Shown here one piece after another: positions 2,061 through 64,000 of a stretch of 64,000 nt of DNA. The notes under the pieces were generated by a model. The model did no database searches and was not told the origin of the DNA. It saw nothing but the letters and a program-made list of their open reading frames with translations. This DNA is from Nageia nagi (lineage: Eukaryota > Plantae > Pinophyta): NCBI GenBank assembly GCA_050084985.1, contig JBITNC010000001.1, positions 5,642,001 through 5,706,000 of the forward strand. Direction: 5' to 3'. The position numbers and the translations under genes are program-made. Numbering within the stretch: position 1 is the first letter of the stretch; each line of letters opens with the position of its first letter.

Positions 2061-5000
2061 AAATAATGGCACAATATTCATTTGTCAAACCAAGTATGCA
2101 ATTGATATGCTCAAGAAGTATGGATCGAAAAGTTGCAAGTTGATACCTACACATGTTGCTCATGGTGCATTGTTGTGTAAGGATGATGGGACTAAGAAAG
2201 TAAATGTAAAAGAGTTTAGGAGCATAGTTAGGAGCCTTATGTTTCTCACCAACACTAGGATTGATATTGCTTTTGTTGTCTCAATGATTTCAAGGTATAT
2301 GAGTGACCCATCTCTTTTACATTTGAAGGCTGCAAACAGTATTCTGAGGTATGTGAGGGGTACTCTTGATTATGGAATCCATTATTTTCATTTTGAGACA
2401 ATAGAGTTGTTTAGTTTTAGTGATTCTGCTTGGGATAGTAACTTGGATGACCGAAAGGCGACTTCTAGTAATTATTTTTCATTGGAGTCTGGATTGATCA
2501 TGTGGAGCTCCAGAAAGTAGGGATGAATGGCAATCTCTTCTATTGAAACAAAATACATAGCACTCACTTTAGCAAGTGTTCAAGCATTGTGGCTCCGAAA
2601 GGTTTTGGAGGAGATAGGTGAGAACCAAGATAAACCTACTTTATTGTTTTGTGACAACTTTAGTGCCATTCAATTGACACAATAACCAGTCCACCATAGC
2701 AGGTCAAAGCACTTTGATTTGAAATACCACTTCATTCGTGGCATGGTGGAGAAAGGACAAATTAAATTGAGATATTATAGCAACCATGACCAAGTAGCAT
2801 ATGTATTTACAAAAAGCGTCACTAAATCTAAGTTTTTGAAGCTAAGGAACTCACTCGCAAGTCCACTCAACATAAAAGGGGAGTATGTTGGAGATAGACT
2901 TGATCTCATGACATCTATTTTGCCAACGTTAACACTTACACCAACACTCTTGCCAGAGACTCAACATCAATGCTCCTGCCACCACCAATGCTAGAGTTCT
3001 TGTCAAATTGATTCTTGAGGTGTTAATTATAGATTCTTTTGTGATTATAGATTCCATATAACATAAGAATTCTGATTGTAATTGTTCCTTCACGAATCTT
3101 AGGGTTGAGGTAGACATAGGATAGTCATTCATTGTGTTGATTCTAGATTTTTTATTCTTGATGTATTGTATTGAGCTTGTTTAGATTGTAGTTGTTAGTT
3201 TAATACTTCCTCCATTATTGTATCTCAATTTGGGTTGCATTGCCACCATTTGTAAGCTCTTTATTTCAGTTAATATAGTTCATATATTCATCTCCATTGT
3301 TGGTCTTGATTTGGTGAATGATAGTTCCATTTAGTTGCTTCATCTTCATGAATGTTGTTTGAATTTATATTATATAACTCATAGCTAATGAATTTTGGTT
3401 CGAAGTAACAAAGCTAGTGATGAGAAGAATTGTATTGGCAGCTTCACAAATGAAGATACCACCAAGTACAATAGAATGTCATTGTATGATGACTATGATG
3501 CTGACGATGGTATTGAGGAACCATCTAAGCTGACAAGAGATGCTGGCAAGCAGTGACAAAGCTGACCGGATGAAGATGGCACTTGTACTCTAAGGAATAG
3601 CTACAGCTTGAACTGGCTTACATTGTGAGCATCATAGATGCAAAGCTATGCGGGAAGATCTAACATTCAAGCGTGGACCCAATTGCTTGAAAAGTTATAT
3701 AAGGTTCAATTTCTTATGTTTGATTTGATACGCTTGCTTCTCCTAGTGAAGTCAAACATAATTGTCCAACATGGAAAGAATGAGGTTTTAAATGCTCATA
3801 ATGAAGAGCCTTATATTTTTGCCCAAGTACTAATCAATTTCCAGAATTTTCAAGAAACTATCTTTAATCCTTTTGTTGGAGAAGAGAAACTAGAATCTTC
3901 TATGGCACCAAAGCTTCAAATCCATAAAACACAAAGGAGAATGCGTTGTAGAAACATGGGTTGATTGGATGTAGCTATGATGAATGATATGCACATAGTC
4001 ATCCCATTGCTTATTCTACCAACAATAAAGAGACAAAATAAGATGTGGTTAATAGTCTTAGTTCAGCCATCAGCATGTGGATAAAAGAAGGTAGAAATAA
4101 ATGCAATTGACAACCCTGAAGTTAACACCACCACTATCAAGAGTGAAACAGAACGAACAAAGTCCTGATTGGAAGTTGGTATTCCAAAATTACTTCAAGC
4201 ACACTAGAAGAACAAGTCAGCAGCCTGAATAGCATCATCTACCTTGGGTGCATGGTATATAGATTGTTAATTTGGGGAACTGGTTGATACTGATTGATAT
4301 GCTAAAGTTGGCTACTACACGTCAAATCCATGAACCAAATGTGTTGTAAAGTATGAACATCCATCAAGAAGGAAGCTCACAAAAAATGTGTGCACATATA
4401 TAGATATGAGCATTCATCCAAGAGAAAGACAAAATATGAGATCAATAAAATTAATAGTTTGTGTTGATAGAAGTGGGTACTACAAGTCTCTTTGTAGAGA
4501 TGTCTAGCAAGTTATCTTTATGTGATAGACATCTTCCATTGTAAACTCTATGTAGTGAATTTGAAGTGATGCTTCTCCACCTGCTAAGTGTAATACAACC
4601 AAAGTCTAGCTTGACCACCATTGATGACTAAAATGCGAGCACACTCCCAAGCCAAAAAAGGGTAGCACCATGGTTGTTCTTGCCACAATGGCTACTAGGA
4701 TTCAAGTTCCAACACTTGCTTTCCCACGACCTTTCCTTTAGGAATGTACGCATATATACCCAAGACCAACATTCATGGGTCTTTGTCTAACCTCAAGAAG
4801 TTTCTTGATGCCTTGAGAGACCTCCAAACCTTGACCCTCTTGATAGGCTATCTTCTTCATGAATTGAAAACCAATCCCTTGCTCAATTGACTTTGATTGA
4901 TTTGTAATCACCAAAAGCATGTGGCTTACTTGGATCCGCAAACATAGATTTTACAAATTATTTTTTTTCTATACTATGCCCTTAATACTTCAAATGCAAT

Positions 5001-6245
5001 GATTGTTCCATAATAACAACATGAAAACAATATTTTCACTACATAGAAATGCAAAATAAGAATATAGAAATATGTAGCTAGATTCAAGAGCATTCATATA
5101 TTATTATTGCATAAGAAAATACATTACAACCAAGAATTTTTTTTTTTTGCACTTCCCAAGGCTTGTATCTTTTCTTACACAACATAATCCACTCTCCTAA
5201 TTTCTACAATGAACAAAATTCATTTTTCCTTTTGGCTAATCTTTTCTAACCTCTAAATATTACAAGAAATAGGTTTATATAACGTCTTGGCGACATTCTA
5301 GATAGAAAACCAAAGCCTTTTGGCTTTTCAATGGCTTCAATAACACCCAAACTGCTTCAACTTCCCGCGAGCTTGTTTTGGACGACCAACGTTGGCGCTA
5401 AGGTTTTTACATGGAAATTTGAACAAAAAGCAATAAAAAACTATTACAGTCATATTTAAGCTCAAATTCCAAAACTAAAGTTGTAACTCCAAAGGATCCT
5501 TAGCGTTGGCACTCAACCCAACGTCAACGTTATCGAATAGTGTATTTCTTCAAGTAACAGTTGAATCGAGCTCCCCATGTAAGGTCTTAAGGTCGGATCA
5601 ACACATCAGGAACCGATTCACGAAATAGATTATGCTAGATAAACTCTAGGACTATCCTTGTTGATGCTAACACCTCTCTCACAATCCACTAAAGTACTGA
5701 AACCTAATTATGAAAGAATCCCAACGTTGGTGCTACCAATAGCAATGATGTTGAATCCCTTTATTCTTTATTGATCCATTTTTTAATCACACCTCCCCAA
5801 TGAGAACACATTTGGTCTCCAAATGCTTAAAACATATAAGGATGAGGAACATAAGTTCCCCAAGGAAATCCATACCATTCTTATCCTCTTGTCAGATGTG
5901 TTGTAATCATCCAAGGATTCCATGGCATAAATCCCCCAATAGGTATGAATAGGTAGTAAGGCTTTGCATTCCTCTACACTCCACTCCACTTCTTGGTTGC
6001 TTCTTCTTCTTGCAATGAAACACTTTCTTCTTGTTCTTCTTGGCTTGTCTTTCCAAATTCTGATCACGTTGTGGTTGAATTGTTGGTTGCTTGTCCTCTT
6101 GGTGCTTAATTGTCATAAGTGTTAGTTTTCTAGAAGGATTACTGATATTCTTCACTTTTCCCATTGCAGCAACGAGATTTGTTGTTTTATTCACACAAGA
6201 CCTTACAACAAATTTCCTATTATCTTTTACAAGACAATACTTATT

Positions 6246-7669
6246 CTACTTCCTATAATATATAACATCCTTATCAAATAAAGGACTTACCAACACTATA
6301 CCAATAACATCAACTAGTACAACATCAAATACAACCTCATCAATGAATTCAACATTAATGGCAAACTTCAACTTGCATTGGTGTGTGACTCGCATCTTTG
6401 TCATATTGTTCACCCACCCAAGTGGATAAGGATGTGAATGAGGATGAGTCTCCAGTCCTAACTTCTTCACCAAGTCCTTTGAAATCATATTCACTTGAGA
6501 ACCAGGATCAACAAGTGCATCAATCTTGATCTTCTTTGCTTGAACCTTGATGTAAAACAATTGCATCATCCTCTCCTCTTCTTCACCTTTTGACAATAAG
6601 CCATTCAAAACCATGCAATTAAGTGTTTCATCAACTTTAGAAGCATCTTTTACCTCAGACACTTTTTATTCCTCCCGCGTTGGCACTGCCCGTAGCGTTG
6701 ACATTGTCTTTTTCTCAAGTTTCTCCTTAAACCACTTCGGTCTAAGTTTTGTATGTGTATACCAACACTTATCTTCCTCGTGCCCTTCTTTCTTGCAATT
6801 TGAGCACTAAGTCTTCTTATCATCTTTCTTTGTTGTGGCATTGATCTTGTCCTCTTGTAGCTTCTTCTTGGAGTCTTTGTCCTCACTTTTGGTCTTCCAC
6901 TAAACCTCCAAGTGTTGTGCTTGAACACAAACTTGATCCAAATATGAAGAATTAAAAAGCAATAATGTATATTGAAGTTAACTATGCAAACCTCCAATAT
7001 ATTTGAGAATAATATCTTAGTGTTTCAAGGAAACCCCAATCAATCCAACCCTCTTTTTGAATTCAGTTTTGTACTTTTGGACACTTTGGCCCTTCTCTTG
7101 CCTAAAATGAAGCTATTTCATTTTCTTCTTTTGTTGATGGCCAAGAGGATAGAATTGACCTTGCAATAGCTCTTTGAAACTCCTCCAACTTGTACTAGAG
7201 AATTCCTCACCAATCTTGACAGCATAGTTTGCTTTCCACCATACCAAAGCATGTCCTTCAAGTTTGAGTGCAGCAATCTCAATCTTTTGTTTTTCATCTT
7301 CAACCTTTTGCAATCTAAAAATACCTCCAGTTGCTATAACCATTGGTTCAACTTTTCAACATCAATCTCTCCTCCAAATAATTTGAGATCAAACTTCACT
7401 TCCAACTTCAAAGGCAACTTCCTAGCTTGATGTGAGTTCTCTCCACTACCAGATTCCCCTCTTGCATTAAAAATTTGGGTCTTTAATCCATTAAACTCTC
7501 TGCTCATTCCTTGAAGTGCTTCTTCCAAACCCTCAATCTTCCTCTTCAACCCATCATTCTCAATGGGAATCTCCTTCTTCAACCAAATTCTAGAACCAAT
7601 ATCAAGGTCAGCCTTAAGCAAACCACCTTTATTTCTTGATCTGATTATAGACATACAAAATAACCACAA
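6246..7669 (-). pseudogene. Gypsy gag, zinc knuckle and aspartic protease, frameshifted; no RT/RNase H/integrase
   Basis: KLFGGEIDVEKLNQWL; KIEIAALKLEGHALVWW..WRSFKELLQGQFYP; CSNCKKEGHEEDKC at about 6765-6810; ALVDPGSQVNMISKDLVKKLGLETHPHSHPYPLGWV (CRM-type protease signature). Confidence 0.88.
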
Positions 7670-9420
7670 CTCTACAACAAATTAATAAATGTCCAACAAT
7701 AATCTCAACCAACTTTGATACCACATGATCTATAATCATCGAAAGCCTATGGCTTACTTGGATCCTCAAATACAGATTTTACAAGTTATCTTTTTTCTAT
7801 ACTCTGCCCTTAACACTTCAAATGCAATGGTTCTTCCATGAAAACAATATTTTCACTACATAGAAATGCAAAATAAGAACACAGAAATATGTAGCCAAAT
7901 TCAAGAGCATTCAAATCTTATTATTGCATAAGAAAATACATTAGAACCAAGGATGGCTCTGTTTTGCACTTCCCAAGGCCTGTATCTTTTTCTACACAAC
8001 ATAATCCACTCTCCTAACTTCTACAATGAACAAAATTCATTTCTCCTTTTGGCTAGTCTTTTCTAACCTCTGACTCTTACAAGGAATAGATTTATATAAC
8101 ATCTTGGGGGCTTTCTAGACAAAAAACCGAAGCCTCTTGGCTTTCCAACAACCTCCATAAAACCCAAGAAAAATTAGTAACACCCAAACTACTTCAACTA
8201 CCAGCAAGCCTATTCTGGACAACCAATGTTGACGCTAAGGTGTTTACATGGAAATTTGAACAAAAAGCAACAAACAACTATTACAATCATATTTAAGCTC
8301 AAATTCTAAAAATGAAGTCGTAACTCCAAGGTATCCTCGACGTTGGCACTCAACCCAACATTAACGTTGTCGAATAATGTATTTCTCCGAGCTCCCTAGA
8401 TCAAGTCTTGAGGTGGGTCAACAGGTCAAGAACCAATTCACGGAACAGAACATGTCAAATCAACTCTACAAATATCCGTCTTGATGCTAACAACTCTCTC
8501 CACAATCCACTGAAGTACTTGTTGGGGTGTTTTTCTTTCCTACCCTAGAGTAGTGAGAAAAACTCCAACACCTCAAGTGAAGGGACGTTACTCCCTCCTG
8601 CTATGGGGCCTGGTTACCCCAAAGGTTAGCTCCACGAGTTGGCGAAGATAACTCAGGGACTGGTTGAGATGTTTGAAGCTGCCACCAATATGAATATCAT
8701 GTGTGGATTCAAGGGACTCTTGAGTTCTGCACATGTGCTTCAACTAGGTTGTTTTCAAAAAATGCTAAGGGAAATAAGGGGTGCGAAAACCACGAAAAGA
8801 AAGTGTAAAATAAAAAAAATAAAAAAATAGTAGAAAAACCGTAGGTAGTAAAATGCAACTACAAGCATGCAAACTCACGAGCTTGGGATAATGTCCTCAA
8901 AAGTCGACTTGTTGGGTCTCAATGTAAGTTCCAAGCACCCTCTATCCATCCCACTAGCCAACAACACGAATGGTCTAGTGGAAGGAGCGTGAAGCTGTGG
9001 CAAGGATGAAATAGGATGGGATGGAGGTAAGCCTCAATGATCCGGGTGAAGTTCCTACCGTGAGCAACATCAACAAGACATTCTGAGGTATCCAAGCCTA
9101 AAATTGCAAATGACAAAATACCACAAACAAGATGCTAATCAACCACTTCACAAGATTTCCAAGCATTCTCTTATCCACTCCAAATGAAATTTACAAGATG
9201 CATCAAGTGATTAAAATCAACACAGAGCAATACTAGAACAAAATAGATAGCACAATCATTCATTCATTTAGATTTGACATTACAACATGAGAAGCATCTA
9301 ATCATAATTGCATTCACATACACCACATTTAACAAGTTTAAAGAATTTTTGTGATGCAAACAAAAGTTCTTTCCAATTGTTAAAAATGTCAATCCCCCCT
9401 TTACAAATGAATCAAAATGG

Positions 9421-9430
9421 ATATAAATAG
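9421..9430 (-). promoter_or_regulatory. Putative canonical LTR TATA box
   Basis: The minus strand reads CTATTTATAT followed by CATTTTGATTCATTTGTAAA, about 900 bp from the LTR 3' end. Confidence 0.45.
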
Positions 9431-9650
9431 TTTGTGAGCAACGGACAATGTTGCCCTAACCATAATTACGAATTCCAAGAAACCAAAATTTGGTCCAATA
9501 AAAAGATACCACATGGCATTACAAGATTCCTTCCAAACTGGTGGGAGCAAATCCTCATTCATCACAAGTTTGGGAATAAAATAATATTATAAAGTATTTT
9601 GCTAAGAATAAATAAGATTTTCTGAAATTAAATAAAACTAAAAATAATGG

Positions 9651-12367
9651 CTAGGGCAATGGTGGGCCCAAGGCCACAACTTGCTCCTCGAAATCCTCAC
9701 CTAAGAAATTCGCCGTAAGCTCCAACTCATGCAACATCTCTAAAAACTTGGGCTTGTTTGCAACTGCACAGCATCCAACCTCACCAATCAACTTCTACAT
9801 CTCGCTCTTCCATCTGTGGGCTCTCAACATGTGTCTAAGGTGACTCCTAGATTGTTAGGTATTCACAACTTCGATCATGAACAAGTTGTGGAGAAGATCC
9901 TTGACCTTTGTCGCTACTATATCTGCCTCCTTGATGGTGGTGTCACCCTCTAGAAACTTCACCTGGAAGTCCATTTGTTCAAAGCTTGTGTTAACCTTGT
10001 CATTGATCATAGTCACCTCTTTCTTGACCTCTTGGAAGCGAGTAACTATTTGATTGATCACCACTAAGTAGAACCAGTAATCTTCACATAACATCTTCAA
10101 ACCTTTGAGCCTATGCCATCTCAAACCGCACTATCATAGGCTTCTAGGACTCCAAAATCCTGAGGAGTCTAACCCTTTCAATCACAATGTCTTTCAACTT
10201 TCGCTCCTCGAATGAGACTCTTTTTTAGGCACCAATAAACTGCTCCACCACTATCAGAACCTCATTGATCACTTCTTGCTTTATTGCAATCATGCCCTCC
10301 TTGAGAGGCTTTACCCTTCAGAGTTCCTTTGGTGGTACTCTAGCAAACTCAATCTCTCGAGTCAATCTCCTCTGGGCGGCTAACTACTTGAGGCTCTTTA
10401 TTTCTTTCTCCTTCAGCAACCCATCTTTGGCAATTGCCTCTATATTGGAAATGATTTTGTGCTTCCTTCCAACCACACCAATAAGACCTGTGTTAATGAT
10501 TTGGTTTATCTGCTTGAGGTCTCGAGGACGTTAACGGTTGTCCTTGTCAACAATTATGGTCTTGATGTTGACCGCATTATCAATCATGTGCACATAAGTC
10601 TAACTCTTCCTTGGACAAGTGGAGCTCTCTCCAACTTGATCATTGACTTCTCTCTATGGTGGCAACAGATCCTTCTCTTTGTTCCTGACACGCCTCATCA
10701 TCTTGTCAGTGGCCACATGTTCCAGCTCTCTCATGTCATGCTCATCCATGATGTTTCTAACTTACTACGCAATCTACTCAATTGGATTCTTGTCGTGCAT
10801 GGAGGCATACTAGCCAACAGGCTCCTCAATCGTTGGGGGAAACTAGGTGACTCTAGGCGTGGATTCTTGTGGTCTTCTCCCTCTTGATTGTGATAACCTC
10901 TTGCCAATGGTGGCCCCCACGATCTGATGTTGTTTTTGAGTGTCCCGTGCATCTTGGCATGGATTTTCTTCATCTCCACCTCATTACTTATGTTCTTGAA
11001 AGGCTCCTCCTCTCTACGTAGCTTATGTTCATAACCTCTCTTTCTCTCCATGTAGAAGTTGTGGATTATGTGCTCAAGATCATAGTAGCTTACGGCGAGC
11101 ATCTTTTTGAAATTGAATTTCCCCAACTCCTCTCTCATGGAATCAACTTCCGCCCAAGCTCTACAGTAATATTCTCCAACTATGATTGGCAAATTTGAGG
11201 TGGCCAATTTCTTTTGCTAGACATGCTCATGCAAGTGGGTCAACTGCCTCATCATTTCCATCAAGAGCAATGTGTTGCTCACATATCTGGGTAGTTGATA
11301 TGCCTCTACGGCTAACCCATAAATTCGAATGTAGGAATAGTGTTGGTGATGGACGAAGAAGTCCCATGCTTCTTCAATGCATCTTGGGCTCAATTTGAGA
11401 TCCTAGCAACCGTGATCTCTCCCTTGAGCTATTTATAGATCTCGCACTCCCATCCATCATTCTTCATGGTGAAACTATCCCATCTTCTTTCAACTTTCCA
11501 CTTAGGATAGCACTTCCAAACAACATGTGTTCCCTTTTGAATCCAGTTTGCTTCCCCTAGAGCCATAGGCCTATACTTGCCATGGAGCAACAAGTACACC
11601 AAGTAAGAGTTGAGATAGAACTTTCTTGTGGTCCTCAAAGATGACGGTCTACAATGGTATCGCTCAACACCTTGCTCCACTTGTTCTTTTTCCCTCTAGT
11701 GATCTCTATGATGAAGCCAAAGAACTCCTTCCTGAATTTGGATCAATCTTCTTTACCCAGGACTCTTGAGAACATTAGAATCATCAACTCCACAGAAGGG
11801 TAGAAGTTGGAGCGAGGGGCGTTGATGAGGGCATTCCCCTTTAGACCATGATGCTCATCCAACATCTCGTTCCTAATGGCCACGGCAGCCATGTTTGTGT
11901 CCTAATAGCATGCAAGTGACTCTGCTTCAGTATATTCAAAGTTTGCCTCCGAAGTCCACTAGAATGTTGTTCTGATGGCTTCAAGGCTGAAGTGCATGAT
12001 GATGTTTCCCTTGATGTCTCAAAGCACCCTCTCTCCCTTTTGCCAATGCTAGCTAACTTCTAGGCACAATTCTGGGAAAGGGGCTGTGAAGTGTGAACGA
12101 GACAAAGGCACAATTAGAAAGCCCGAAGAAGAAAACAAGGTCTTGTTTCAGGTCACTGATTTGCATAACCTATATCCTATCCCTCATCTACAGGGGGCCT
12201 ACCTTTTGCCAGTCTGTGTCTCCAATTGTGGCAAACCCATTTTTAGAGAACTTGGCCCCTTGGGGTAAGGGTTCTTTCCTCTTGCAGATGGTAATGATGC
12301 AATCTTGCCTTAGTGTTTCTAGGTCCCTTGCAAAGTCTTTGGTCGAACTGCTCTTCGAGGTGGTCAT
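9651..12367 (-). pseudogene. Decayed accessory ORF of about 900 codons inside the solo LTR (plant-transposon-protein-like N-terminal half, coiled-coil C-terminus)
   Basis: Collinear minus-strand fragments 12188-12397, 11429-11680, 10731-11207 and 9855-10124 join by read-through: MTTSKSSSTKDF..IGDTDWQK..PFPELCLE..MFSRVLGKED..FFGFIIEI..KWSKVLSD..TRKFYLNSYLVYLLL..ALGPPLP*. Many stops look like deamination products (TAG/TGA). Confidence 0.7.
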
Positions 12368-12587
12368 GATGCTCAAGTTAATAATGAAGGATCTCAAAGG
12401 TGATGCGTTGGCCTCCCAAGGATGCTATGACTCCCCGTTGCCTTGCTTGGCCTCCTAATTCCTTGTGCAAGCCTAACCAAGTGGTGTGACGGATTCCGGA
12501 ACCCAAATTTTGTCTTATACCTTAGAATTTGGTGCAAGAGCTAAAGAGGAGACAAATTTGAATTTGAGAAAAATGAGCCTTTGGGCT

Positions 12588-12600
12588 TCTATTTATAGGC
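12588..12600 (-). promoter_or_regulatory. Putative TATA box of the LTR-internal ORF
   Basis: The minus strand reads GCCTATAAATAG, about 220 bp upstream of the ATG at 12367. Confidence 0.55.
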
Positions 12601-12743
12601 AAATTCAAGTCTCCAAGAAACCCTAGTCGGTCATGCACAAGGAGGAATTGATCTTGGCCGACCTCGCAATGCATGCATGCCCAAACTTCCATGCTTGGCT
12701 ATCGAAAATTGGACGTGGGGAGTCTGGGGCTCGTCTAGGGCTA

Positions 12744-13705
12744 GCGCATGCCTAGAAAAGACAAGATTTTGTCTTTCTAGAGCGCATATGCGCTCACCCT
12801 AAGGATGCATGCTCTTTGTGTGCTAGCTCTCCTTGCTCCACACTCGTCCGTTTTGATCCTTCATGCTCATGATGAGACCTGAACTTGTCCGATTTTACCC
12901 TTCCTAGTGTTCGAGCTTGCCAAATTTGCCCAACGTACTCAACCAGAAAACCCCCAAGTTGAGACCATGTCTCAAAAAGGCAAGATTTTGTCTTTTCGAA
13001 ACGTGCACCCAACTCTCCAACTCCCCCAGTTTGGGTGCATGTCCCAAAAAGACAAGATTTTGTCTTTCTAAGACATGCGTTGGGTTGTGGATGCCCAAAT
13101 TGACTAAGTTTCAACTTTCTGCTCTCAAGGCTTGGCCAAATTTTCATGTTCTTCCCATCCTGATGTCTCCTTGGGCCTAGCAATGCTCCCAAAAGTCAAG
13201 ATCTTGTCTTTTCAAACCATGCACTAGCCCTTCCGGTCCTATTGAAGCTGCATTCGGGCTTTGAGGCTCCATGCCTTAGCCAAATTTCATCTTTAGATCA
13301 AACTAGATACCCTCTTGCCCTAAGCGCATGCCTCAAAAAGACAAAATCTTTTTGAGGCATGCGCTAGCCTCCTGGGTGGATATACTTAACTTTCTCGATC
13401 TTCAAACTTGTCCAAGCGACCTCTCTCAACTTGAGCGCATGCTCCCAAAAGACAAGATTTTGTCTTTTTGAGGCATGCCCTCGCCAAGCTTGGAATCCTT
13501 CTTGCTTGCCTTCTCCATCTTCCATTCCGATCCAAGCGCCTCCCAGACCCAAACGTATGTCCCAAAAAGACAACATTTTGTCTTTTTAAGGCATGCGCTA
13601 GGCCTAGAAGTGGCCCAGTTTGCCTTTCCAAACTTAGATTCCAACTTGGATGACTCCCTAGTCCGAGCGCACATCCCAAAAAGACAAGATTTTGTCTTTT
13701 TGAGC
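12744..13705. repeat. Array of 8 palindromic repeats of about 45 bp with unique spacers
   Basis: Consensus GCGCATGyCyCAAAAAGACAAGATTTTGTCTTTTTGAGGCATGCGC at about 12744, 12966, 13035, 13183, 13324, 13435, 13554 and 13667. Confidence 0.92.
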
Positions 13706-15683
13706 CCTAGGCCTAGGAGTGGTCCAAACTCACTTGACTCACTTCCGACTCAATGTGGGTTTCCTTAGTCCATCTAGACTCGACTTGAATTTCCATACTT
13801 AGCCTTTTTTTGGAGGATTTTGGCTTTCATTCTAACATGACTAAGACCGGGCGATTTAGCACACTCAGGTGACGGGATGATAAAAGTGGTTCCCAATTAG
13901 ATGGAGTTGGGAAGGCACAATATAAAACGTGGTGTTGCACGGACATGAGTTGCAATGCATCCCTAAAATTGCATGATTTTGGGGTGAGTTGTATAGGGCA
14001 CAACAATATTGACACCTAATTATGCAGGAATCCAAGCGCTAGCGTTGGCAACAACGTTGACACTATATCCCTTTATTCATATTGATCCATTTTTGGATCA
14101 TTGATGGAGGTCTACAATATTTTACCCTCTTGAAACCATAGGGTTTAACCTTTGAAGGACTATCTAAAAAAAGAGCATGTTGCTCTTGTAAAAACATCAA
14201 TCACTCCATGGCAAGGCTGAAAAACTTTTCTTTCTGTTTTATGTTTTTGTAACTCTTCGATCTCTTTCTAACTTTTGAATAACTTATAGAATGTTCTCAT
14301 TAGTTTTCCTCTTCCTTTGCTTGTTGGCAATGGATCTTCTTGCTTTCTTTCACCAAGAGCAACATAGCAGATATGACTTTAATTGGAAATTTCAATTCTA
14401 ATTTTTCGTCGAATGGCAGCCAAACAATTTTTGCCTATTCCAAGTTTGACTAATATTGTAAAAACAACTAAGAGGAAGCTCAATTGAATTAAGCATGCGC
14501 AAATGGAACAAGCTACACAACCTCGAAAGGTCTAGATTCTAAATAGCAAAATACATTGTCAATTCAAGATTTGGTAAGCTACTCTACCTTGATCACCTTC
14601 AATTTGCAACTCTTCCCTACTCCACCTCAACTCCCAAACTGAGACTCTATTCGCTCAAAAGTTCAAAATCGTAAACTCACAATTCAAAACTCCTCCTAAA
14701 GGAATCTTCATCCAAGATGATTTGCTCCCTTTATAAACTCTAAAGTGACCTTCAATCTTCCACCAAGATTTTGTAGTTGAATTGTTTTTTTCTGATCAAC
14801 TAGCATGCCAACATAGCTATCCTCGTCAGTTCACATTCCCTTGGCAACTATTCAACTACTTTATCTCCCAACAGTAATGATTCGACATTATCCCAATTGT
14901 CCAAATGTTTCCACCACAAAACTTCGAACTTCTGTTAGTTTCGCATTTTGTTGGACATCTTAAAGGTATTGATGTCATCTTCATGGCTTAACTCAATTAG
15001 GTGACAATCTTTGAGTCAAAAGATCTAAGTATTACTTTGCAAATGAATGTTGAGAGAGCCAAAGCGCCCAATCAGGTCAATTGCACATCAAATTGCCATT
15101 GCTAAATTGTGTCGCCAAATCACCAGCTCGATATCCCCATCACACATCTCCAAAATGAAAGTGCAATCAAATGCAAAAAATAATCACTAGGTTGCCATCG
15201 CATTTCTCTATCACAGAACAGCAAATCATCACATATCATCAATGCAAATAAAATGCGAAAAGTGCGAGAGTTATAACTCACCATAGTGCCAAATTGCCAT
15301 TTTGATAGATCGGTTTCATCATATTGCCAAAGCAAAAATCAAAGTTTAAAAAAAAACATAGAAAACAAAGGATTAAGTCCAAAATTCAAATTCAAATCAG
15401 ACCTCCCTTGTGAGAAGCTTTTGGCCTCTCAGAAGTCTATTGAAAACAAAGATAAGGATATGTATCATCACCCGATTGAAGGGTATCCACTTGGCTTTGT
15501 TCAGCATCTGACCTTTAGAAGAAATTAGCCAATACTCCTATTCCCCTCGTCTAGAAGATCTAATATGTTCTTTAGGCCCTTTATGGTATTTGTGTATTGT
15601 TTTTCTTAGTTTGTTTCTAGAGAGGACCCTCTAGGAACCCACATGTTGCTTTATAAATTTGTACCTCATAGTCTGATTGACCA

Positions 15684-16706
15684 TGTTTACAAATAAAATT
15701 GAGCGTGTAAATAAATAAATAAGCAAATATCTACAAACTCAATATTATCTGTATTTGAGCTACGGATAGCAATTTATTCTCACAAATGTTTACAAATAAA
15801 ATTGAGCATGCAAATAAATAAATAGGTAAATATCTACAAACCCAATATATTTGTATTTGAACTAAAGATAGCAATTTATTCTAGATAACAATAAACAAAA
15901 TAACCAATTCAGAAATGTAATTGTAATTATATCAAACAAGACTGTGGTTTGTATACTTACCTCACGGAACATACCTGACAACGAAAGATGAAGATGTTGG
16001 CGATGTACTGATGATGAACTGCCTCTCAAAAACGTAGTGACCTATGAGGATGCAAAAAGAGGACCGCGGGTGGTCCGTTTTAGAGATAATGGAGCGCCGG
16101 CGGTGTTCTTGGTTCATAAGGGAGCGCCGGCGGCCTTCTTTTGATGATTTTTGATCTCTCAATCAAGTCCAGAACTTTAATACAGATGTCTCAGATAGCA
16201 GTGTGATATCAGAATAGATCGTGGATGTCAGGATAGCTCGCGAAAGGAAGCACACAAACCACAGCCTTGTAGGCGGTACCAAGAGATACCTTAAGGGGTA
16301 GCCACTTACAAGACCATACGCGAGATCATGTGTATCCTTGTTATTGTGGACTTACTATTAGATCCCTTATTTATATAGATAATAGATAATACCGCCCATA
16401 GGTCGGCATGCATCCACATAAATAAGGTTAATTCACAAGATTTAAGATAAACACATCAATAAACAAGATAATTCATGCAATACTCAAGATAATCCATGCA
16501 ATATTCAAGATAACCCATGTAATATTCAAGATACCCATGCAATATTCAAGATAACCCATGCAATATTCAAGATAACCCATGCAATATTCATATTCAAGAC
16601 AAACATTGATATTATCACTTTAATACATTCAAGACATATATTTAGGCCAAGCATATTTCATTAATTTATTGATTTAAAAACATAAATTCATTTTTATGTG
16701 TTAACA
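15684..16706 (-). mobile_element. 1.02-kb solo LTR
   Basis: TGTTT..TAACA with perfect TSD GACCA (15679-15683, 16707-16711). Minus-strand TATA CTATATAAATAAGGG at about 16364-16378. Contains a duplication of about 103 bp (15684/15787) and 20-bp tandem repeats. Confidence 0.88.
16465..16600. repeat. Minisatellite, unit of about 20 bp (AATATTCAAGATAACCCATGC), about 6 copies
   Basis: Direct inspection. Confidence 0.85.
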
Positions 16707-16727
16707 GACCACTTTTGGTCGCCAACA

Positions 16728-18895
16728 GACGTTAATATATTTTGTCTCTTTCTTTCTATCTAGTACCATGTCTTCCACTACTTCAAAGTTTGTTCGATCC
16801 AATTCATCCACTTCAGGAAGAATGAGAGTCTCTTTGTCATCCAACATTAACGACTCAAAACAACTTTAGATTTCCACATTGACCATAGAGTACATCTTAA
16901 TGTAGCTAGGTAATTCGAGTTTAAATGCATTTTCACCATATTGTTCCAAAATCCTAAAAGGCCTATAGTGTATGGGCTTCAATTTCTTACTTAGACCCTG
17001 CATATGCTCGTTACTCAAATAAAGCCACACCAAATTGCCAACATGTAATTGATATGTAGTCTAGTGTTGGTTGTGGCGATCCTTGTATTGTTGTTGAGTC
17101 CTCTTCAGCGTCCCTTCAATCCTCTAGTGAATAAGTTGAATTCATTGAATGAATTGAAGTGTTCGATTTTCCTTCAGCATAAAGCTCTTTGGTTCTCGTT
17201 GGCAATTTTCAAAAGCTCCATCAATTATCAAATAAGGAGAAAACCCATAACTTATCTCAAATGGAGAAAGTTGCATGGACATGCGTATTTCCCTATTATG
17301 GTAATCATAGTTAGAAGAATCAACAATTATTCACCAAAAGTGAATCGGAATTGAGGTTGTCAAGGTAAACGATTTTTTTGTAACTGATTTCACTTTTTTT
17401 ATGCTGATTTGGCGATTTTTTTTAGAAAACCGTAGTTTTGATTCTTCAAAAAATCATGATTAAATCATGATTCCTGATGGGAAAATCACTGATTTTTTAC
17501 AGGTGGCGGCTGAGAGGTTAAAAACAACAAAAATCACTCATTTTTCACTTTTTCTTCCAACCAAAAGCTGAGAGGAGCTAGGGGAAACAACATTTTCCAT
17601 GATTTCATCGAGATTCCAACACATCCACGTAAGTTTCTAAAGCTTTTTCCAATGGTTTTTGAGTTTTGTTGGGTATTTTTCTCCCAAGGTTTTCAGCTGT
17701 TTTTTTTTTCTAGTTTGTCTATGAGTTTTAGTGGGTAACTTTGTTACTTTTTTCCAATGCATATGGTTGCTTGCCCCTTGTGAGTTGTGATGTTGTTTTG
17801 CTTGTTTTTGTTCTTTCTTTTTTTATTTTACAGCTACAGTCTGCAAGTATGAGTTCTTCAAGGGGACAAGGACAAGGGCAAAGGAGGGACCCTTGTTGGG
17901 CTTATATGAGTTCTTATTTGCCGATTTTTTTGCCTATTATGATATGATTCTCAATTAATCCGAATCCTCCAACCAGACGATTCTGATCTGATTCTGATTC
18001 TGACAACTTTGATAACAATACTGAATATAGGGCAAACTTTAATCACAAGTCTTGGGATTCTTCTGGTTGTAGGCCCTCAACAAATGCACTAAAGTTTGAT
18101 TGGTGACTTCAATCTAACCATTCATCTGCAAGTGAAATGTGTAGATCTTTTTAACTTTGTGTCAAACATTCTCCAAAGTGCATTCCAGAAAGTACAAGAA
18201 AACTTGTTACTCCATTTGTTGCGACAGTTTTCATGCAAGGAATGACAATTGCCATCTTGTTGAACCTATGTACTATCAAAAACAAATAGTCACTCCCCTT
18301 TCAAGTGGTCAGCACTCCAATCAGAAATTCATCAAAATGTTTTCCCAAGGTCGACAAAAATTGGTAGGGGAGTGTACATTCTCAATTGTCAGTGACTTGG
18401 CTTACCGATACTGCATTTTTAACAACCTCTGACGAATATTGGAACTTCATTCCACATATTTGGCCAATACACATACCTCTATAAATTTGCCAGTCTTGTG
18501 CATGCCAAAGTATCCAGCAACTAGTGATGTATGAGCTTCTCGCATCAACTGAATCCAACTATATCGTTTTGGAATACAAATCTTTCTAGCTTTAAACAAT
18601 AAACTCTCCTCCAAGTGGTAATATTCCACCAAGTTGGATTGTTCTCCTGCCTTTAGCAATCTGTTTTTGGCTCCAAATTCGTCATCCTCCACATATCTTT
18701 TCTTGCAATCATAAAATGGAAATGGTTCCAGTTCCATAACCACCAATGCAAGTTTGATTTAAGATCAAAATAGCATGTCAACAAGTATGTTGGTCTTCCC
18801 CTTCTTATACTTAATTAGGAGATTAAATTGCTAAAGAAAACCCATTCATTTGAAATGTCTAGCTTGCTGTAAATTGATTTGAGTTTGCAAATACA
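16728..18895 (-). pseudogene. Ty3/Gypsy pol remnant (RNase H end, integrase, GPY/F region)
   Basis: LMREAHTSLVAGYFGMHKT (integrase zinc-finger start); TLVHLLRAYNQKNPKT..LPYIQY..SPFE; KKLKPIHYRPFRILEQYGENAFKLELP. Confidence 0.88.
17306..18011 (+). mobile_element. hAT-family internal deletion derivative (706 bp)
   Basis: Imperfect TIRs CATAGTTAGAAGAATC / GATTCTGACAACTTTG. 8-bp TSD ATGGTAAT / ATAACAAT (transitions only). It retains a GT..AG intron (about 17629-17832) and the transposase start MSSSRGQGQGQRRDPCWAY (onset of a BED-finger-like motif). The integrase frame rejoins across it. Confidence 0.78.
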
Positions 18896-19978
18896 CATTC
18901 TCCATGTTCAGTCTGTTTTGGGGACCAAGCCCATTGGAGATCCCGTTGGGCAATGAATGAGGCCAAAAAACTCTTGATCCAATTGCCTCCCTTCAAGAAA
19001 TTGACACTTTAAATTGAAAATTCATGGATCAAGGATAAATCCCAAATCAAGTTCCTCCGCTCCCGTATTAAAAGATTTAACATAACAAAATTACACAAAA
19101 AAGTAATTTTATAAAAAAAAAAATTGTACAAATTACTTCACATTAAAATGAACATAACAAGCACATGAGCCTTCTTTGACTCTTTCATACATGAACCAGC
19201 TACTGCAACTCTAAAATAACGCTATTGAAATGCCATACATGGCCCTTGGGTGTAGAAGACCATCAATAATAAACATATTTCAAACTCCTACAGACTTCCA
19301 TACATTAAAGTGAAAGCCTACACACATTTATATAAGTATTTCCATGACTCTTAATGTTTAGGATATAAAAGAAACGATGCTTGAGGGCATGACACTTCAG
19401 TTGCAATTCTTTTATAAATCCAAAATTAAGGCTTTATTCTCTTATTCCGTCAAAAGAAATAGCCATCGCGATTTCACCTGTTTTCTTGCAACTACAACTC
19501 CTAACAATTCCAACAGCAAGTAACGATACTATCCACATGTATGTTTTCATAGTTTCAAGGATATGAAAACTTGAACTAATCAACCTAATATAAAGTTCAA
19601 GGATATGGAAACTTGAATTGCTGTGCCCTGTATGAAGTGAAAAGTTTTCATTGTTCCAACAGAGGGGTCTCATTTGCCTACAAAGGTGACAGTAAAGGGA
19701 AATATTTGTTGTTCTCAACAAGGTTTGCTACACCTTGAGAGAAATTTTATTGATGTGCAGTCGAGAAAACATTACTAAATGGGGTTTGCCCAAACAAACA
19801 ATATGTCCTATTTAATCCAAAGGAACTATAATTTTATTACGAATAATTTTTTCTAAAAACATTTTTGTGTTATAGAAGCAATGAGAGTTACCTATTCCTT
19901 TAGTATAATAAAAGTATTCCTCTAGAATAATATTATATTGAAACAGCCAAAGTTCAAGACGGTGGATAGAATTCTTAC

Positions 19979-21858: not shown

Positions 21859-22349
21859 GGGAAAATATCCAAAATACTCATAATTTTCCATAATTATGAA
21901 AATACCCCTATATTTCAAAAATTGTGAAAATGCCTTTATCAAATAAAAAAATTAATATACTTTGATATGTGTGTAATTTTTTTTATGATACATGCACCCA
22001 ACGCAGAGATTGGATATGTGTGTAATTTTATTAAGGATGTCATCTGTACAATATCTTTCAATAGAGGTCAATTGTTCATCACGAAATTTTTTATACTCTT
22101 AAAATATCACCAATTTTCACATCACATAAATATGGAACCAATTCGAAAATATGTGACATGGAAATATGTGATACTTTAAATTATAAGAACTTTTGTGATT
22201 AATAACTACTATCTCTATTGAAATATATTGTATGGGTGGCATCATTAATAAAATTACATATAAATCAAAGTATATTAAAGTTATTTTTTGTTTGATAAGG
22301 GTATTTTCATAATTATGGAAAATTATAGGGGTGTTTTGGATATTTTCCC
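21859..22349. mobile_element. Mutator-like fold-back MITE (491 bp)
   Basis: TIRs GGGAAAATATCCAAAA / TTTTGGATATTTTCCC, with inverted similarity extending nearly to the centre. 9-bp TSD TTAATTTTA / TTAAGTTTA. Confidence 0.88.
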
Positions 22350-39100: not shown

Positions 39101-42100
39101 GGTCACACTGTCCAACTAGGATAGGTATTCATAAATATTTACTTTGTAGGATATAACTCGAAGGTTTAGACCAAGTTGACCTAGGTTAATTTACAACCAT
39201 AGAATGATTAAATTATTAAAATACTTTGTTTACAATATAATACCATGGTAATATTACAACTTGAATGAAGAACTATTTTCAATTTATTTATTTTATTTGG
39301 AAAGGGATTCAAGTATGGTTTGAACTTTGTAGATAAGGTATGTTCAAGAAGTAATAAAACTTGTGAATACATAGATAAATGCAAGTGAGTATACCTATAA
39401 CAATTCCTAGGGTCCAATTTGAACACCAAGAAATAGGTATTTTACATACAAATGTGAAGGTTTATCTATAGTTAACCATGGCTTTAATGAATATTTAAAT
39501 TATTATAGTCCAATAACATGAATCAATTGACATTATGATTATTATTGGTAAACATTATCTACATCATATTATTATATTGTATAAACCACAAGTAGTTGAC
39601 TTTTAGTTTAAATTAGAATTCTGTTCTATCAAGTGTTTTATGTTGGATTGATTTGGCAACTTGATTATGAAAGGTTGAGTTTGTGAATATGTAAGACTAG
39701 AGGTTAATGCTAGAGACTATTAAGAAATGCTTAACAAAGGCCAATATTTACAAATATGGTAAAACATTTTAGGTAGGTTATCCATGGGGACCATAGAATT
39801 ATGTTCATACCTTCATTCATAAATAGAAAGTTGTAGCATAGGAAGATTATTTGTGAACAATCATGAATCCTTGTAAGCATTATTTGTGAACAATCATGAA
39901 TCCTTGTAAGTTGTGAATCCACCTTTATATTAAATTTATGAGTGTGAAATAAAATACATGGGATATGAGTAGGATGCATGGTCAATACATTTATAGGCAT
40001 GGTATGCATTGCATGTGATCAAGCATATATGTATATAAGAGAAATAAATATATCACCACTCTATCCCATGTTTGGGGCAACTGGGTTGTCTATGGAGAAA
40101 TTTTCTCAACCCTTAATTCGATCAAATAGTTCTATTTTCAGTTTATAATCTTAAAAACTGCTAATTATTTTCTTGTATAGGGATTTTATTTCCATGGACA
40201 TGTATTCTTCAAAAATGGAATTACTATGGTGATAAATTTGGTTTACTAGTTAATTGTAGAATTCAATATTAATAAATTAACTTTGAATAAAATAGAAGAT
40301 AACTTAACGAGAAATATATGAAGATATTATTAGTTATACATGAAGTTCAGATTAGTTGTTGTGAAATGTTTGTTAAAATAATTATTTTATGCTTGTTATA
40401 ATGTCAAAAACATGTTAATAAATGGTTTGCAAAAAGAAATGATGAGTTTCAGTCTATGGGTTGGAATATGTAAGTTCATGATTGGTTTGATGAATGAAAA
40501 TTTGCATGGATAAGAAAAATAAAAACTACAATATGTAATTATTTCTATTCATTTATTATATATAGATGCTCTTATCGAATGAAGGTTTATTTCTTTTTGT
40601 GTAAACAATAAAAACAACTATGGATCTTTGTTAAAATGGAAAATTGTACGTATCAAATTCCAAATGAAAAATTTTATACCCAATGTAATATTTCTTACTT
40701 ATGGGAAACTGATATGTGTAAAGAAGACACACATTGCTCTAACTAGAATACTACTTGGGCTCTTATGTGAGAACTATTTAGTTGAATCAAGTTCAAAACT
40801 ACAAATATTAAAAAGGGATTATTATCATTTATCTATTATATGATGTAATGTAACATGAATTGGTGTATCTCCTATAAATAATAAGGTATTAATGGGAGAG
40901 AAAGATCCACAACCTACTATTAGTATCATAGTATGCTTGGAAAACTAATAGTATGGTCACTTGATATTACTTAGTAAACACTATGACTAGTTTGTCTAAT
41001 TGATTATGTAGGCTTGGTAAACTATTGAATACATAATAATGTATAGCCCATGTGAAATTTTGGGATATATGTAAATAAATCTATTAGATGCTTGATAATG
41101 GAAAACATATGATCTTATACAAAGTTTTGTATAAAATGACACAAATATAGAGAATGGATGGCATATGATTCTATGTGAATCCTTATTTAATTGCTTAAAA
41201 TAGTATGTAGAAAAAAAAATTGATATATTTGATTTTTTGATAGTGTAAAGTTTTAATATGAAAACACTTGTATATTTAAATAGTTAACATGGAATTATTA
41301 CAAGGTAATCTAACAACCTGATATATAAGGATGAATTAAAATTATAAAATTATAATTACAAGTATATATCCCATGAATCATTCAAAGATAATAGTTAAAT
41401 ATTATATTGAAAGATATGAAAGATTCCTTAAACTCCACCCAAGATCACCTTGGATGTAATTTTCCTAATCTTAAGAACACATAGATCATTCAGATAAAGA
41501 AAACTCAAGCATGTATAGTGGCTCCTCCAACCATGGGAGTACATCCATTTGAATCATCTGAATTCTATCATCTCAAGAACTATAGCTCTCTATAAAACTA
41601 GAAGCATATTCAAGCTTTCTCCAAGATCAAGCTCTCCTCAAACTACAAGCATTAGAGTGCTTTTCAAAAGTGTATTTTACATCAAGCCCAAGCCCTCCTT
41701 TTATAGGTGAAAGTCTCACCTTATCTCATCCTTTTACCCAAGGGGAATACAATAGACTAAAGGTCCTTACATAAGGATAATAATGGAAAAGTTTCATGCT
41801 TGAGTGTAGGAAAAGATTCCCAATATTTAATCCACTTAAATACTTAAAAGGTATTTAGAAATACTTTTAAGTATTAAGTGATTGAATAGGTAGTTACATA
41901 AAAGAAGTATTATTCCTTAGATACTATCTAAAGAATAACTTACATAATAATACATTATATGTTCTAGCACTCCCCCTTAATGTAATATTGGATAAGTAAG
42001 AAGAAAATAATGTAAGAGAGTAAAAGAAAGTTCTTCTCCATAGAAAATACAATTGAAGATGAGAACTTAATAACATAGAATTGAGATGGTTCTACAAGGC

Positions 42101-47655: not shown

Positions 47656-49569
47656 AACTTTGCTAAAAAAATATTCATATATTTTTTATTATTATAAAAA
47701 AAATTTCATGTAAATTTGGTTTGCCAAGTAGGTACAAAAATTAAAAAAAATATTTCAAGTAAAGATTATATATTTGTAATAAGCATTTAGTATGAACATT
47801 ATAAAAAAATATATCAATGTTAGGTGTAAAGGTAAACCCTACAACCTTTCATACAATGTTCAATTTCAATGGAAATCCATACCAATTTATATAAAACCAA
47901 TGTATATAAATTGTTTGTAAAATATAATAATATTATTAAAGATATTGTGTAATATATTTCATAATAATATTGGTAAATCATTCCACTCTTTTTACAAAGC
48001 TTTCTATTTGTAAAAAAGATAGTATCACAAAATAGATAACAATTTTGTAAAAGAGCTAAAAAAATTTGCAAACTTTCACAAAACATTACATAATAACATA
48101 TTGTGATATATGCATTAATTTTGTAAAGGATAATTTAATGAGGCAATTTGCAACTTTGAAAAATTAATTTCAAAACTGTACAAACTTATAACTAATATAA
48201 TAACAAATAATTTTAAAAACTAACATATGTATAACAATACATAAAATTGCACACTAAACCTTTAAAAAAGGTTAATCTATTAAATAAGAGGATTGTAGTA
48301 CCCAAAACTATTGGTTGGGAAGCACCAACATCCTTCTTAATTTTTAAGCTATTTTTACACTAAGAAGTTATTTTAATATATATAAGCTTAAAGCTTAATT
48401 TTAACAAAAAATAGCTTGTGTAAGGAAAAAAAGAGCAAAATTTTAGCAAAAAATAGCTTAGAAAATATAAGAGAGTGAGAAGAAAACTTATATCTCAATA
48501 TAATTTTACCTCATAATATGAATAGAAGATTTCCAAGGGTGGCTCTAATACCAAATGAAGGAGTTTAAGGATTCCTTAAACTACACCTAACATCACCTTG
48601 TATGTAATCTTCCTAATCTTAAGAACACATAGATTATTCACACAAAGAGAACTCAAGCATGTATAGTGGTTCCTCCAACCATGTAAATACACCCACTTGA
48701 ACTATCTCAATTCTATTATCTCAAGAACTCTAGCTCTCTCTACAACTAGAAGCATATTCAAGCTTCCTACAAGATCAAGCTCTCCTCAAACTACAAGCAT
48801 GAAAGTGATTTCCACAAGTGTATTTTACATCAAACCCAAGCCCTCATTTAATAGGTGAAAGTCTCACTTTAGCTCATTATTTTACCCATAGGGAATATAA
48901 CAAACCAAAGGTCCTTACACAAGGATAAGAATGGACTAGTGTCATGCTTGAGTGTAGGACAAGACTCCTAATATTTAATCCACTTAAATACTTAAAAGGT
49001 ATTTGAGAACACTTTTAAGTATTAAGTGATTAAATAGGGAGTTACATAAAAGAAGTATTATTCCTTAGATACTATCTAAAGAATAACATACACAATAATA
49101 CATTATATGTTTGAACATATATCATCCTACATGAGAGAGAACAAGTATGATACAAAAAAAACATAATTAAGTAGTGAGCATGAAGTTCACTTGTATATGA
49201 TGAACTCATACAATAATCGTGGAATCTTATGATAAAGGTAAGTTCCATTATCAAATCTTGATAATATAAAATATACAAATAATATTGCAATGTTCATTTA
49301 TTTAATGGTTAAGAATGATGAATTTGCATAGTGCTTAAGGTTGAGCAACCTTCTAAAACCTCTAAGTAGAGAATATATTGACAATAACTTATACAATGAA
49401 TAATCTACAAATGAATGAGGGTAAATAGAATAATAATTCTCACATGCACTTAAACCTATCCTTATTCAAGGTATTATTCAATTGTTGCCATGATTTATAT
49501 TGGTGTTAATGTCATTATTATGCAAATAAGAAAAAAACTTTAAGGTGGTTTTTAGGTGGATGTGGAATA

Positions 49570-63200: not shown

Positions 63201-64000
63201 GTGCATATCCAAGCTTAATTCAAAATATGAGATGACAAATCTTGATCTCTTGCATTACTATCTTGGTATGCAAGTATATCAATATAAGGATTGTACCTAC
63301 CTTAGTCAATCCAAATACACCTTAGATATTCTACAGAAGTTTGAAATTAAAGAATGCAAGTCGTTGGATATTCCTATGTCTCTTGGAATCAATTTAGAGA
63401 TTGGATCTAACTCTTAGTTGGAAAATGCTAAAACTTATATGTAGTTAATTTGATGGTAAGGTTAATGCAAAAACCTTATGTTGAGTATCTCTCTATAGCT
63501 AAAAACATATTGAGGTATATTGCAGGCACTAAGGATCTAGCCCTCAAATATACCAAGTTACCTTTCTTTGTTCTTTCATAATTCTTAGATTTTGAATATT
63601 GAGGTGAAAAAGAGGATATGAAATCTACTTAAGCTTATGTGTTTAGCATTGGTTTAAGCACTATCGCTTGGTCTTCCTAGAAGCATCCCACCATCACTCT
63701 TTCCACTATAAAGGAATAATATAGAGCTATGATAGTTGAAGCTTAGGATGCTATTTGGTTGAAAAATATTCTGAAGAAAATTGGGTTTGAACGATCTGAT
63801 CCTACCCAAATTTCTTCAAATAATCAATCAACCATTACTTTAGCCAAGAAGTCTATTTACCATCAAAGAATGAAGTATGTAGAAATCCAAGCTCATTTTA
63901 TTAGGAAGAAAGTTTTAGATGGGACTTTGTAGCTTTAGTATTGTCCATCGAACTTGAACTCTGATGATTTATTCACCAAACCTCTCTCAAAGGCTTAGTT
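60259..64000 (+). pseudogene. Copia gag-pol polyprotein (gag, protease, integrase, RT, RNase H) with many stops
   Basis: DWIVYSGCTNHM (protease); LWHQILGHIN; LRLDNGCEY..PYSPQQNGVAKRKNRSIMEMARCM (integrase); KYKVRLVAKGF, LYGLKQAPRAW, VLYVDNI (RT); DLFTKPL (RNase H). The PR-INT-RT-RH order is Copia. Confidence 0.96.

Follow-up and report, generated by a model that had tools for sequence, protein, structure and literature searches.

The 64,000-nucleotide window analysed here (Nageia nagi contig JBITNC010000001.1, positions 5,642,001 to 5,706,000) carries on its minus strand a 5.5-kb unit, which is probably a solo long terminal repeat (LTR) of a Ty3/gypsy retrotransposon with giant LTRs and which encloses an accessory gene. 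We give an even chance to the joint reading, namely a giant solo LTR with a once-selected gene of VANC/PMD fold, whose protein would bind an array of sites upstream of the gene against silencing.

By the established mechanism, an element that is reverse-transcribed and inserted by integrase carries an LTR at each end; a lone TG..CA unit with a target site duplication (TSD) and without a terminal repeat is a solo LTR. The unit begins with TGTTG at 14005 and ends with CAACA at 8520, thus displaying TG...CA ends. Its two TSD copies, AATAT and AGTAC, match at three of five positions, and both differences are transitions. The unit interrupts one LTR of a decayed Gypsy element, whose other LTR (4898-5789) holds a single AGTAC at the position equivalent to the insertion point; the TSD is therefore real and was decayed by two transitions. 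The flank 14006-14100 aligned to 5695-5789 at 74% (95 nt) and the flank 7726-8519 to 4898-5698 at 81% (822 columns), which together with the single AGTAC identifies the unit as a true insertion. Contigs of four public runs gave a high depth between the 8434-8650 and 13859-14075 bins and almost none beyond them. Self-comparison of the window revealed neither a terminal direct repeat in the unit nor a second copy of it, and a search of the unit locus for gag, pol, a primer binding site (PBS), a polypurine tract (PPT) and a second LTR found none. More specifically, no TGG lies at 0-5 nt from the 3' end, and the 15 nt preceding the 5' end include just 8 purines; clear PBS and PPT sequences are present in the host Gypsy and in a Copia elsewhere in the window. 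A Pfam scan of six window segments found no enzyme gene within the unit. The ends, the empty site and the self-comparison thus uphold the original prediction of one TG..CA unit with a TSD and without PBS, gag, pol or second LTR. Its further claim, an LTR with the gene in U3, stands as regards the ends, the TSD and the gene inside the unit; a full element was not found in the collections searched.

The host element spans 4898-14100 on the minus strand, with LTRs of ∼0.89 kb that are 81% alike and a PBS-like TGGTATCA near 7723. Its interior encodes gag and aspartyl protease (Pfam), followed by the 3' LTR. No reverse transcriptase, RNase H or integrase was present between the LTRs, and it is therefore an internally deleted or non-autonomous copy.

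Relatives of the unit were identified through the protein of its open reading frame (ORF). A search with one segment returned P0001 (77% identical) and P0002, and P0001 as a query led to two loci, L001 and L002, out of 24 candidate stretches. L001 aligned to 13854-10799 at 71% over 3,103 columns and L002 aligned in pieces at 63-71%. Both begin with TGTTGTG and carry the palindromes, telobox, TATA element and ORF described below; neither of these close copies extends to the 3' end of the unit, as they end within or near the ORF. A distant family member, located upstream of the close one in L002, supplies a 3' end (L002 1-2817). Its ORF matched a profile of five C-terminal homologs (E 4.8e-6, ∼20% identity), and it ends in GGAAAG...AACA, similar to the window unit. 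The order at the family level is 5' end, array, telobox, first TATA element (TATA1), ORF, second TATA element (TATA2) and tail, with array and gene kept together in all three copies. The predicted location of the gene inside the unit, as one integrase-type unit, is thereby borne out for the family.

Further observations concern the distribution of these relatives. In L002 the distant member lies head to tail with the close one, 31 bp before its 5' end (2849 onward), which may reflect either chance or a preference for insertion near kin. L001 contains photolyase/cryptochrome exons (PF03441) at 4850-5260, ∼3 kb upstream of the 5' end of its unit. At 8520-8560 and 8600-8630, summed contig depth was far above that of nearby bins, with values of 35,000-134,000 over the terminal 40 bp in three runs; the tip of the unit is therefore common to a very abundant repeat group. 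A profile search with alignment A1 returned three proteins, and no relatives were found in viral contigs or prokaryote genomes; a palindrome match in a viral contig (L003) was a chance match and was not used. Of 20 proteins looked up by cluster, one had an informative name, a Cryptomeria mannosyltransferase model (P0077, XP_057824563.1). Its first 83 residues weakly match the ORF family (E 5.5e-4), which is likely due to a mis-joined or exonised element fragment. This weak match and the repeat context suggest a conifer host.

The ORF runs from an ATG at 12367 to a stop codon at 9653-9651. The original prediction of a 2.7-kb ORF of ∼900 aa agrees with the 905 codons counted, in a frame followed through six segments placed by eye. 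The frame is not open, being interrupted by 24 stop codons and five or more frameshifts, with a longest stop-free stretch of 161 aa; the window copy of the gene is dead. It also lacks, near 10655, an acidic spacer of ∼570 nt that L002 and P0088 have, and the family protein is therefore ∼1,100 aa and the family unit ∼6 kb. The ratio of nonsynonymous to synonymous substitution rates (dN/dS) between the window copy and L001 was 0.14 (0.10-0.20) over 432 codons. The comparison with L002 was saturated (dS ≥2.9) and was not relied on. The substitution pattern indicates that the accessory gene was once under purifying selection. The ratio is thus not near 1, and neither the lack of a long frame in the family nor a chimera confined to this copy was seen.

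In the non-coding part of the unit, an array of palindromes follows a tip of 290 bp at the 5' end. Each is composed of a half-site GCATG, a variable linker and AAAAGACAA. Seven array units lie within five mismatches of a 22-bp core (13711-12745), in addition to one shortened unit at 13323-13365. The core was absent from both strands of the remaining 58.5 kb of the window and from 100 shuffles, in agreement with the palindrome array first predicted. L001 and L002 hold six to seven units each, giving a range of six to eight across the three copies. The arms showed 249 matches out of 360 against 248 ± 6 in shuffles, for 18 of the 21 units (three with a short centre were left out, and the core columns were preset by the search pattern). 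They therefore do not covary, as would be expected of sites for a protein more than of hairpins, and a hairpin or cruciform role was set aside. The identities within and between palindromes (0.81/0.68 and 0.74/0.65) are not evidence, as the units were chosen by core match. The palindromes are, on this pattern, likely candidate protein-binding sites.

Downstream of the array, the telobox, defined according to bioRxiv 10.1101/2024.09.27.615353, precedes TATA1, which is likely the putative promoter of the accessory gene. The private promoter that had been proposed for the gene thus takes the form of its own conserved telobox and TATA. The two TATA elements expected near 12588-12600 and ∼9425 were located at 12598-12589 and 9430-9422. 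The second is likely the putative LTR promoter; we infer its direction, because the plus strand also reads TATAAATAG. The pair formed by CTATTTATA and the G run is 911 nt from the unit end here and 938 nt from it in the distant unit of L002. The tail showed weak similarity to that distant unit, with a score of 411 (50 shuffles: mean 351, maximum 383).

The predicted model of the N-terminal domain matched the fold of VANC21 (PDB 9lnk) over 205-231 residues at 4-9% identity. VANC21 is reported to be a structural relative of PMD. The domain is thus predicted to have a VANC/PMD fold, in a comparison that covered the VIA lists and leaves room for folds outside them. Pfam gave no PF09331 or PF10536 hit and nothing meaningful for the six window segments and 49 alignment homologs, and neither Transposase_32 nor PMD was matched among them. 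The Atlas leads for the ORF were all below 0.9, a PDB sequence search gave one row, a chance match, and Foldseek searches against the PDB (two models) and against viral structures gave no match at E 0.001. An Rfam scan of 4800-14500 returned none. The earlier suggestion of a PMD-like, anti-silencing protein therefore has support at the level of the fold and none from Pfam Transposase_32 or PMD. The C-terminal region, which has homologs at 62-69% identity (P0085-P0089) and contains 30-34% E/K/R/Q, is likely helical or a coiled coil. A motif array in the element's own DNA, as is characteristic of VANC/DUF1985/PMD genes, is present and lies in its non-coding part. VANC proper is carried by a Mutator-like DNA transposon; the present unit has a 5-bp TSD, TG..CA ends and no transposase. 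By its modelled fold, the protein resembles a VANC/PMD-type accessory gene product with its own site array, without thereby being placed in VANC or in a named Tat lineage.

These features suggest a model in which TATA2 would start the genomic RNA, so that everything upstream would be U3 and would be copied to both LTRs by reverse transcription, and TATA1 would drive a separate transcript for the accessory gene. An oligomer of the protein, formed via the C-terminal helical region, would bind the two-fold palindromes in U3. The bound protein would oppose DNA methylation or Polycomb silencing and keep TATA1 and TATA2 open, thereby sustaining its own expression and that of the element in positive feedback. 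The gene would be doubled by the copying of U3 and would survive in solo LTRs, the present one having been left by recombination between two LTRs. Given the fold, we favour, with modest confidence, a DNA-binding anti-silencing factor. The wider proposal is more tentative and we lean slightly away from it: that a very abundant gymnosperm retrotransposon family moved a VANC-type gene and its binding sites into its LTR, which would make every LTR and every solo a self-contained, self-activating cassette able to act in trans across the family.

A common fold does not show function, and a solo LTR could instead encode a transcriptional activator or repressor of the LTR that leaves silencing marks unchanged, or a protein that handles RNA or has a structural role, with a host factor binding the palindromes. 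The PMD proteins MAIN and MAIL1 are reported to be required for silencing (PMC5418596), and the function of the PMD-coiled-coil extra ORFs is called unknown in PMC4408406, both of which would accommodate such a role. We consider it rather unlikely, as the sole solved match is a DNA-bound anti-silencing factor and the array and gene were retained together in all three copies.

Several observations weigh against the unit being an LTR at all, and would favour a stand-alone element with integrase-type ends that carried the accessory gene only and was moved whole, in trans, by the integrase of another element or a related enzyme. Neither the two loci nor the viral and prokaryote collections yielded a full element in which two copies of the unit flank PBS-gag-pol-PPT, and no pol or PBS linked to the unit was recovered. 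A PPT was seen at none of three 5' ends and a PBS at none of two 3' ends. The contigs at 8520 in the four runs (75, 53, 65 and 6) enter many unlike flanks, with none shared among those listed, in a comparison of contig counts in which one deep PBS junction could hide. Furthermore, conifers are reported to form few solo LTRs, one per 4 to 7.5 complete elements (PMC5751070). Against this, long LTRs may recombine more, and five ends are too few, since complete elements alone would give five of five outward ends about 1 time in 32. The terminal inverted repeat is of 5 bp only, no enzyme gene lies inside the unit, and the unit has a U3-R-U5-like polarity with a second TATA ∼0.9 kb from its end that is kept in the distant relative. 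A stand-alone element is thus improbable, and a solo LTR remains the preferred identity.

The TG and CA ends enclose the ORF, which has a whole LTR on neither side; in Tat/Ogre/Athila (OTA) elements the extra ORF is in the internal region. Internal extra ORFs are reported in TatII and TatIII elements of gymnosperms, and that of TatIII includes PMD. The unit could in principle be a deletion chimera of an LTR start, an internal extra ORF (of the sense TatII/Athila type or the antisense PMD type of TatIII) and an LTR end, in which case the true LTR may be an ORF-less 2.3-kb form. A single deletion would leave a whole LTR beside the internal ORF and none is there; a chimera therefore needs two deletions, common to copies with dS ≥1 and to a relative of ∼20% identity, which makes it very improbable. 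The G run at 9399-9394, which has TG after it, is PPT-like; as the PPT of a short 0.87-kb LTR it was rejected, since the G run of the distant L002 unit has no TG after it. One contig in each of two runs (X3, X4) joins 9593 to 12738, omitting TATA1 and the ORF, and hints at a gene-less 2.3-kb form; the hint is weak, as the shorter side of the joint spans 34-38 letters and unknown letters separate the two sides.

Table 1. Features of the unit and its insertion site (window positions; a point marks features without strand).
Feature	Position	Strand	Remark
Whole unit, TGTTG...CAACA	8520..14005	minus	5,486 bp; likely solo LTR
TSD, left copy, AATAT (decayed)	14006..14010	minus	
TSD, right copy, AGTAC	8515..8519	minus	equals empty site in the host Gypsy's other LTR
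Array of 8 palindromes of ∼44 bp, spaced 72-256 bp	12745..13711	.	likely protein-binding sites
Telobox AAACCCTAG (plus-strand letters)	12618..12626	.	18-20 bp before TATA1 in 3/3 copies
TATA1 CTATAAATAG	12589..12598	minus	at the equivalent place in window, L001 and L002
Decayed accessory ORF	9651..12367	minus	∼905 codons here, ∼1,100 in family
N-terminal globular domain of ORF	11170..12367	minus	VANC21-matched part ∼12235-11465
C-terminal charged region of ORF, likely helical/coiled coil	9654..10650	minus	beyond the missing acidic spacer
3' UTR-like T-rich stretch (42% T)	9431..9650	minus	
TATA2-like CTATTTATA (9430-9422), then CATTT and G run 20-35 nt on	9394..9430	minus	
R/U5-like T-rich tail, ending GGAAAGAAAAACACCCCAACA	8520..9393	minus	
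Host Gypsy 5' LTR, part before insertion	14006..14100	minus	context, outside unit
Host Gypsy 5' LTR, part after insertion	7726..8519	minus	context, outside unit

Other repeats were observed in the window. A small Copia of 1.9 kb (126-2060, minus) has 175-bp LTRs that are 94% alike, PBS, PPT and a gag remnant (PF14223), and adjoins a reverse transcriptase/RNase H-like sequence on the opposite strand (∼2059-2900). At 60743-63417 (plus) lies a decayed Copia pol (Pol_BBD, rve, SH3, RVT_2). Inspection by eye of 16100-18900 (minus) suggested an integrase-like remnant of a Gypsy element and, after it, a stretch that resembles an LTR and holds seven 21-bp tandem repeats (16436-16590); the single ORF scanned there had no Pfam match. 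Nested inverted repeats with arms of 42-57 bp (21871-22326) are typical of a miniature inverted-repeat transposable element or foldback element. Two 556-bp direct repeats (41408-41963 and 48556-49111), 89% alike and 7.1 kb apart, enclose tandem arrays of 52, 45 and 54 bp and no long ORF; they may represent an LTR element without coding capacity or a segmental duplicate.

PMC4408406, PMC7264820 and PMC11963269 all treat the role of extra ORFs in plant Ty3/gypsy elements as unknown. The titles and abstract openings searched, in which most subscription journals were not covered, mentioned no gene in a plant LTR and no VANC-fold gene on an LTR element. A predicted VANC/PMD-fold protein beside a sharply defined candidate site renders the anti-silencing idea open to a binding assay. 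A ∼1,100-codon gene inside an LTR would break the rule of non-coding LTRs, and solo-LTR formation, usually a host removal of element genes, would leave this gene in place. Annotation tools that limit LTR length or assume non-coding LTRs would miss or misread the family. If the proposal holds, LTR retrotransposons would join dicot DNA transposons as carriers of VANC-like counter-defence, which might account in part for the filling of giant conifer genomes.

The location of the gene is shared with the sag gene of mouse mammary tumour virus, which lies in U3 and is present in both LTRs and in solos. That virus is an animal retrovirus and sag encodes a short membrane protein, unrelated in sequence and role.

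Among plant elements, LTRs of up to about 5 kb are reported in the Tat/Ogre/Athila lineages. The unit resembles the PMD-coiled-coil ORFs of Tat III, IV (Ogre) and V, PMD-A, Athila ORF-1 and Transposase_28/32 in its large ORF with a globular part and helical C-terminus near repeat arrays, in its probable non-chromovirus Ty3/gypsy origin and in being PMD-like by fold (PMC4408406, PMC6317226, PMC5418596). It differs in position, as the extra ORFs of Tat, Ogre, Retand and Athila are reported to be internal, before gag or after pol (PMC6317226, PMC4408406, PMC7264820, PMC11963269), that of gymnosperm TatIII being an antisense internal PMD ORF (PMC6317226, PMC4408406), whereas the present ORF is inside the TG..CA unit and has no Pfam match.

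A palindromic motif, in many cases accompanied by a telobox, is reported to be common to the targets of MAIL2, which are protected from Polycomb (bioRxiv 10.1101/2024.09.27.615353). [quoted passage not shown] The likeness of the present unit to these PMD-C proteins and their M1M/M2M motifs would comprise the PMD/VANC fold, a palindrome near a telobox and start site, and anti-silencing.

Another close comparison is with VANC21 of the Mutator-like VANDAL21 of Arabidopsis, which is reported to bind motifs densely arrayed in non-coding DNA of the transposon that encodes it and to remove methylation (PMC5735166). VANC genes are described as MuDR-encoded and dicot-specific, with a C-terminal or adjoining coiled coil (PMC13547354), and their co-evolution is mentioned in PMC12859917. 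The present gene is instead carried by an LTR-type unit of likely gymnosperm origin, its sites are long palindromes rather than a 9-bp direct motif, and binding and demethylation are predicted here. The two nevertheless are alike in their predicted fold, in being transposon accessory genes, in the dense motif array and in the coiled-coil region, which is a likely one here.

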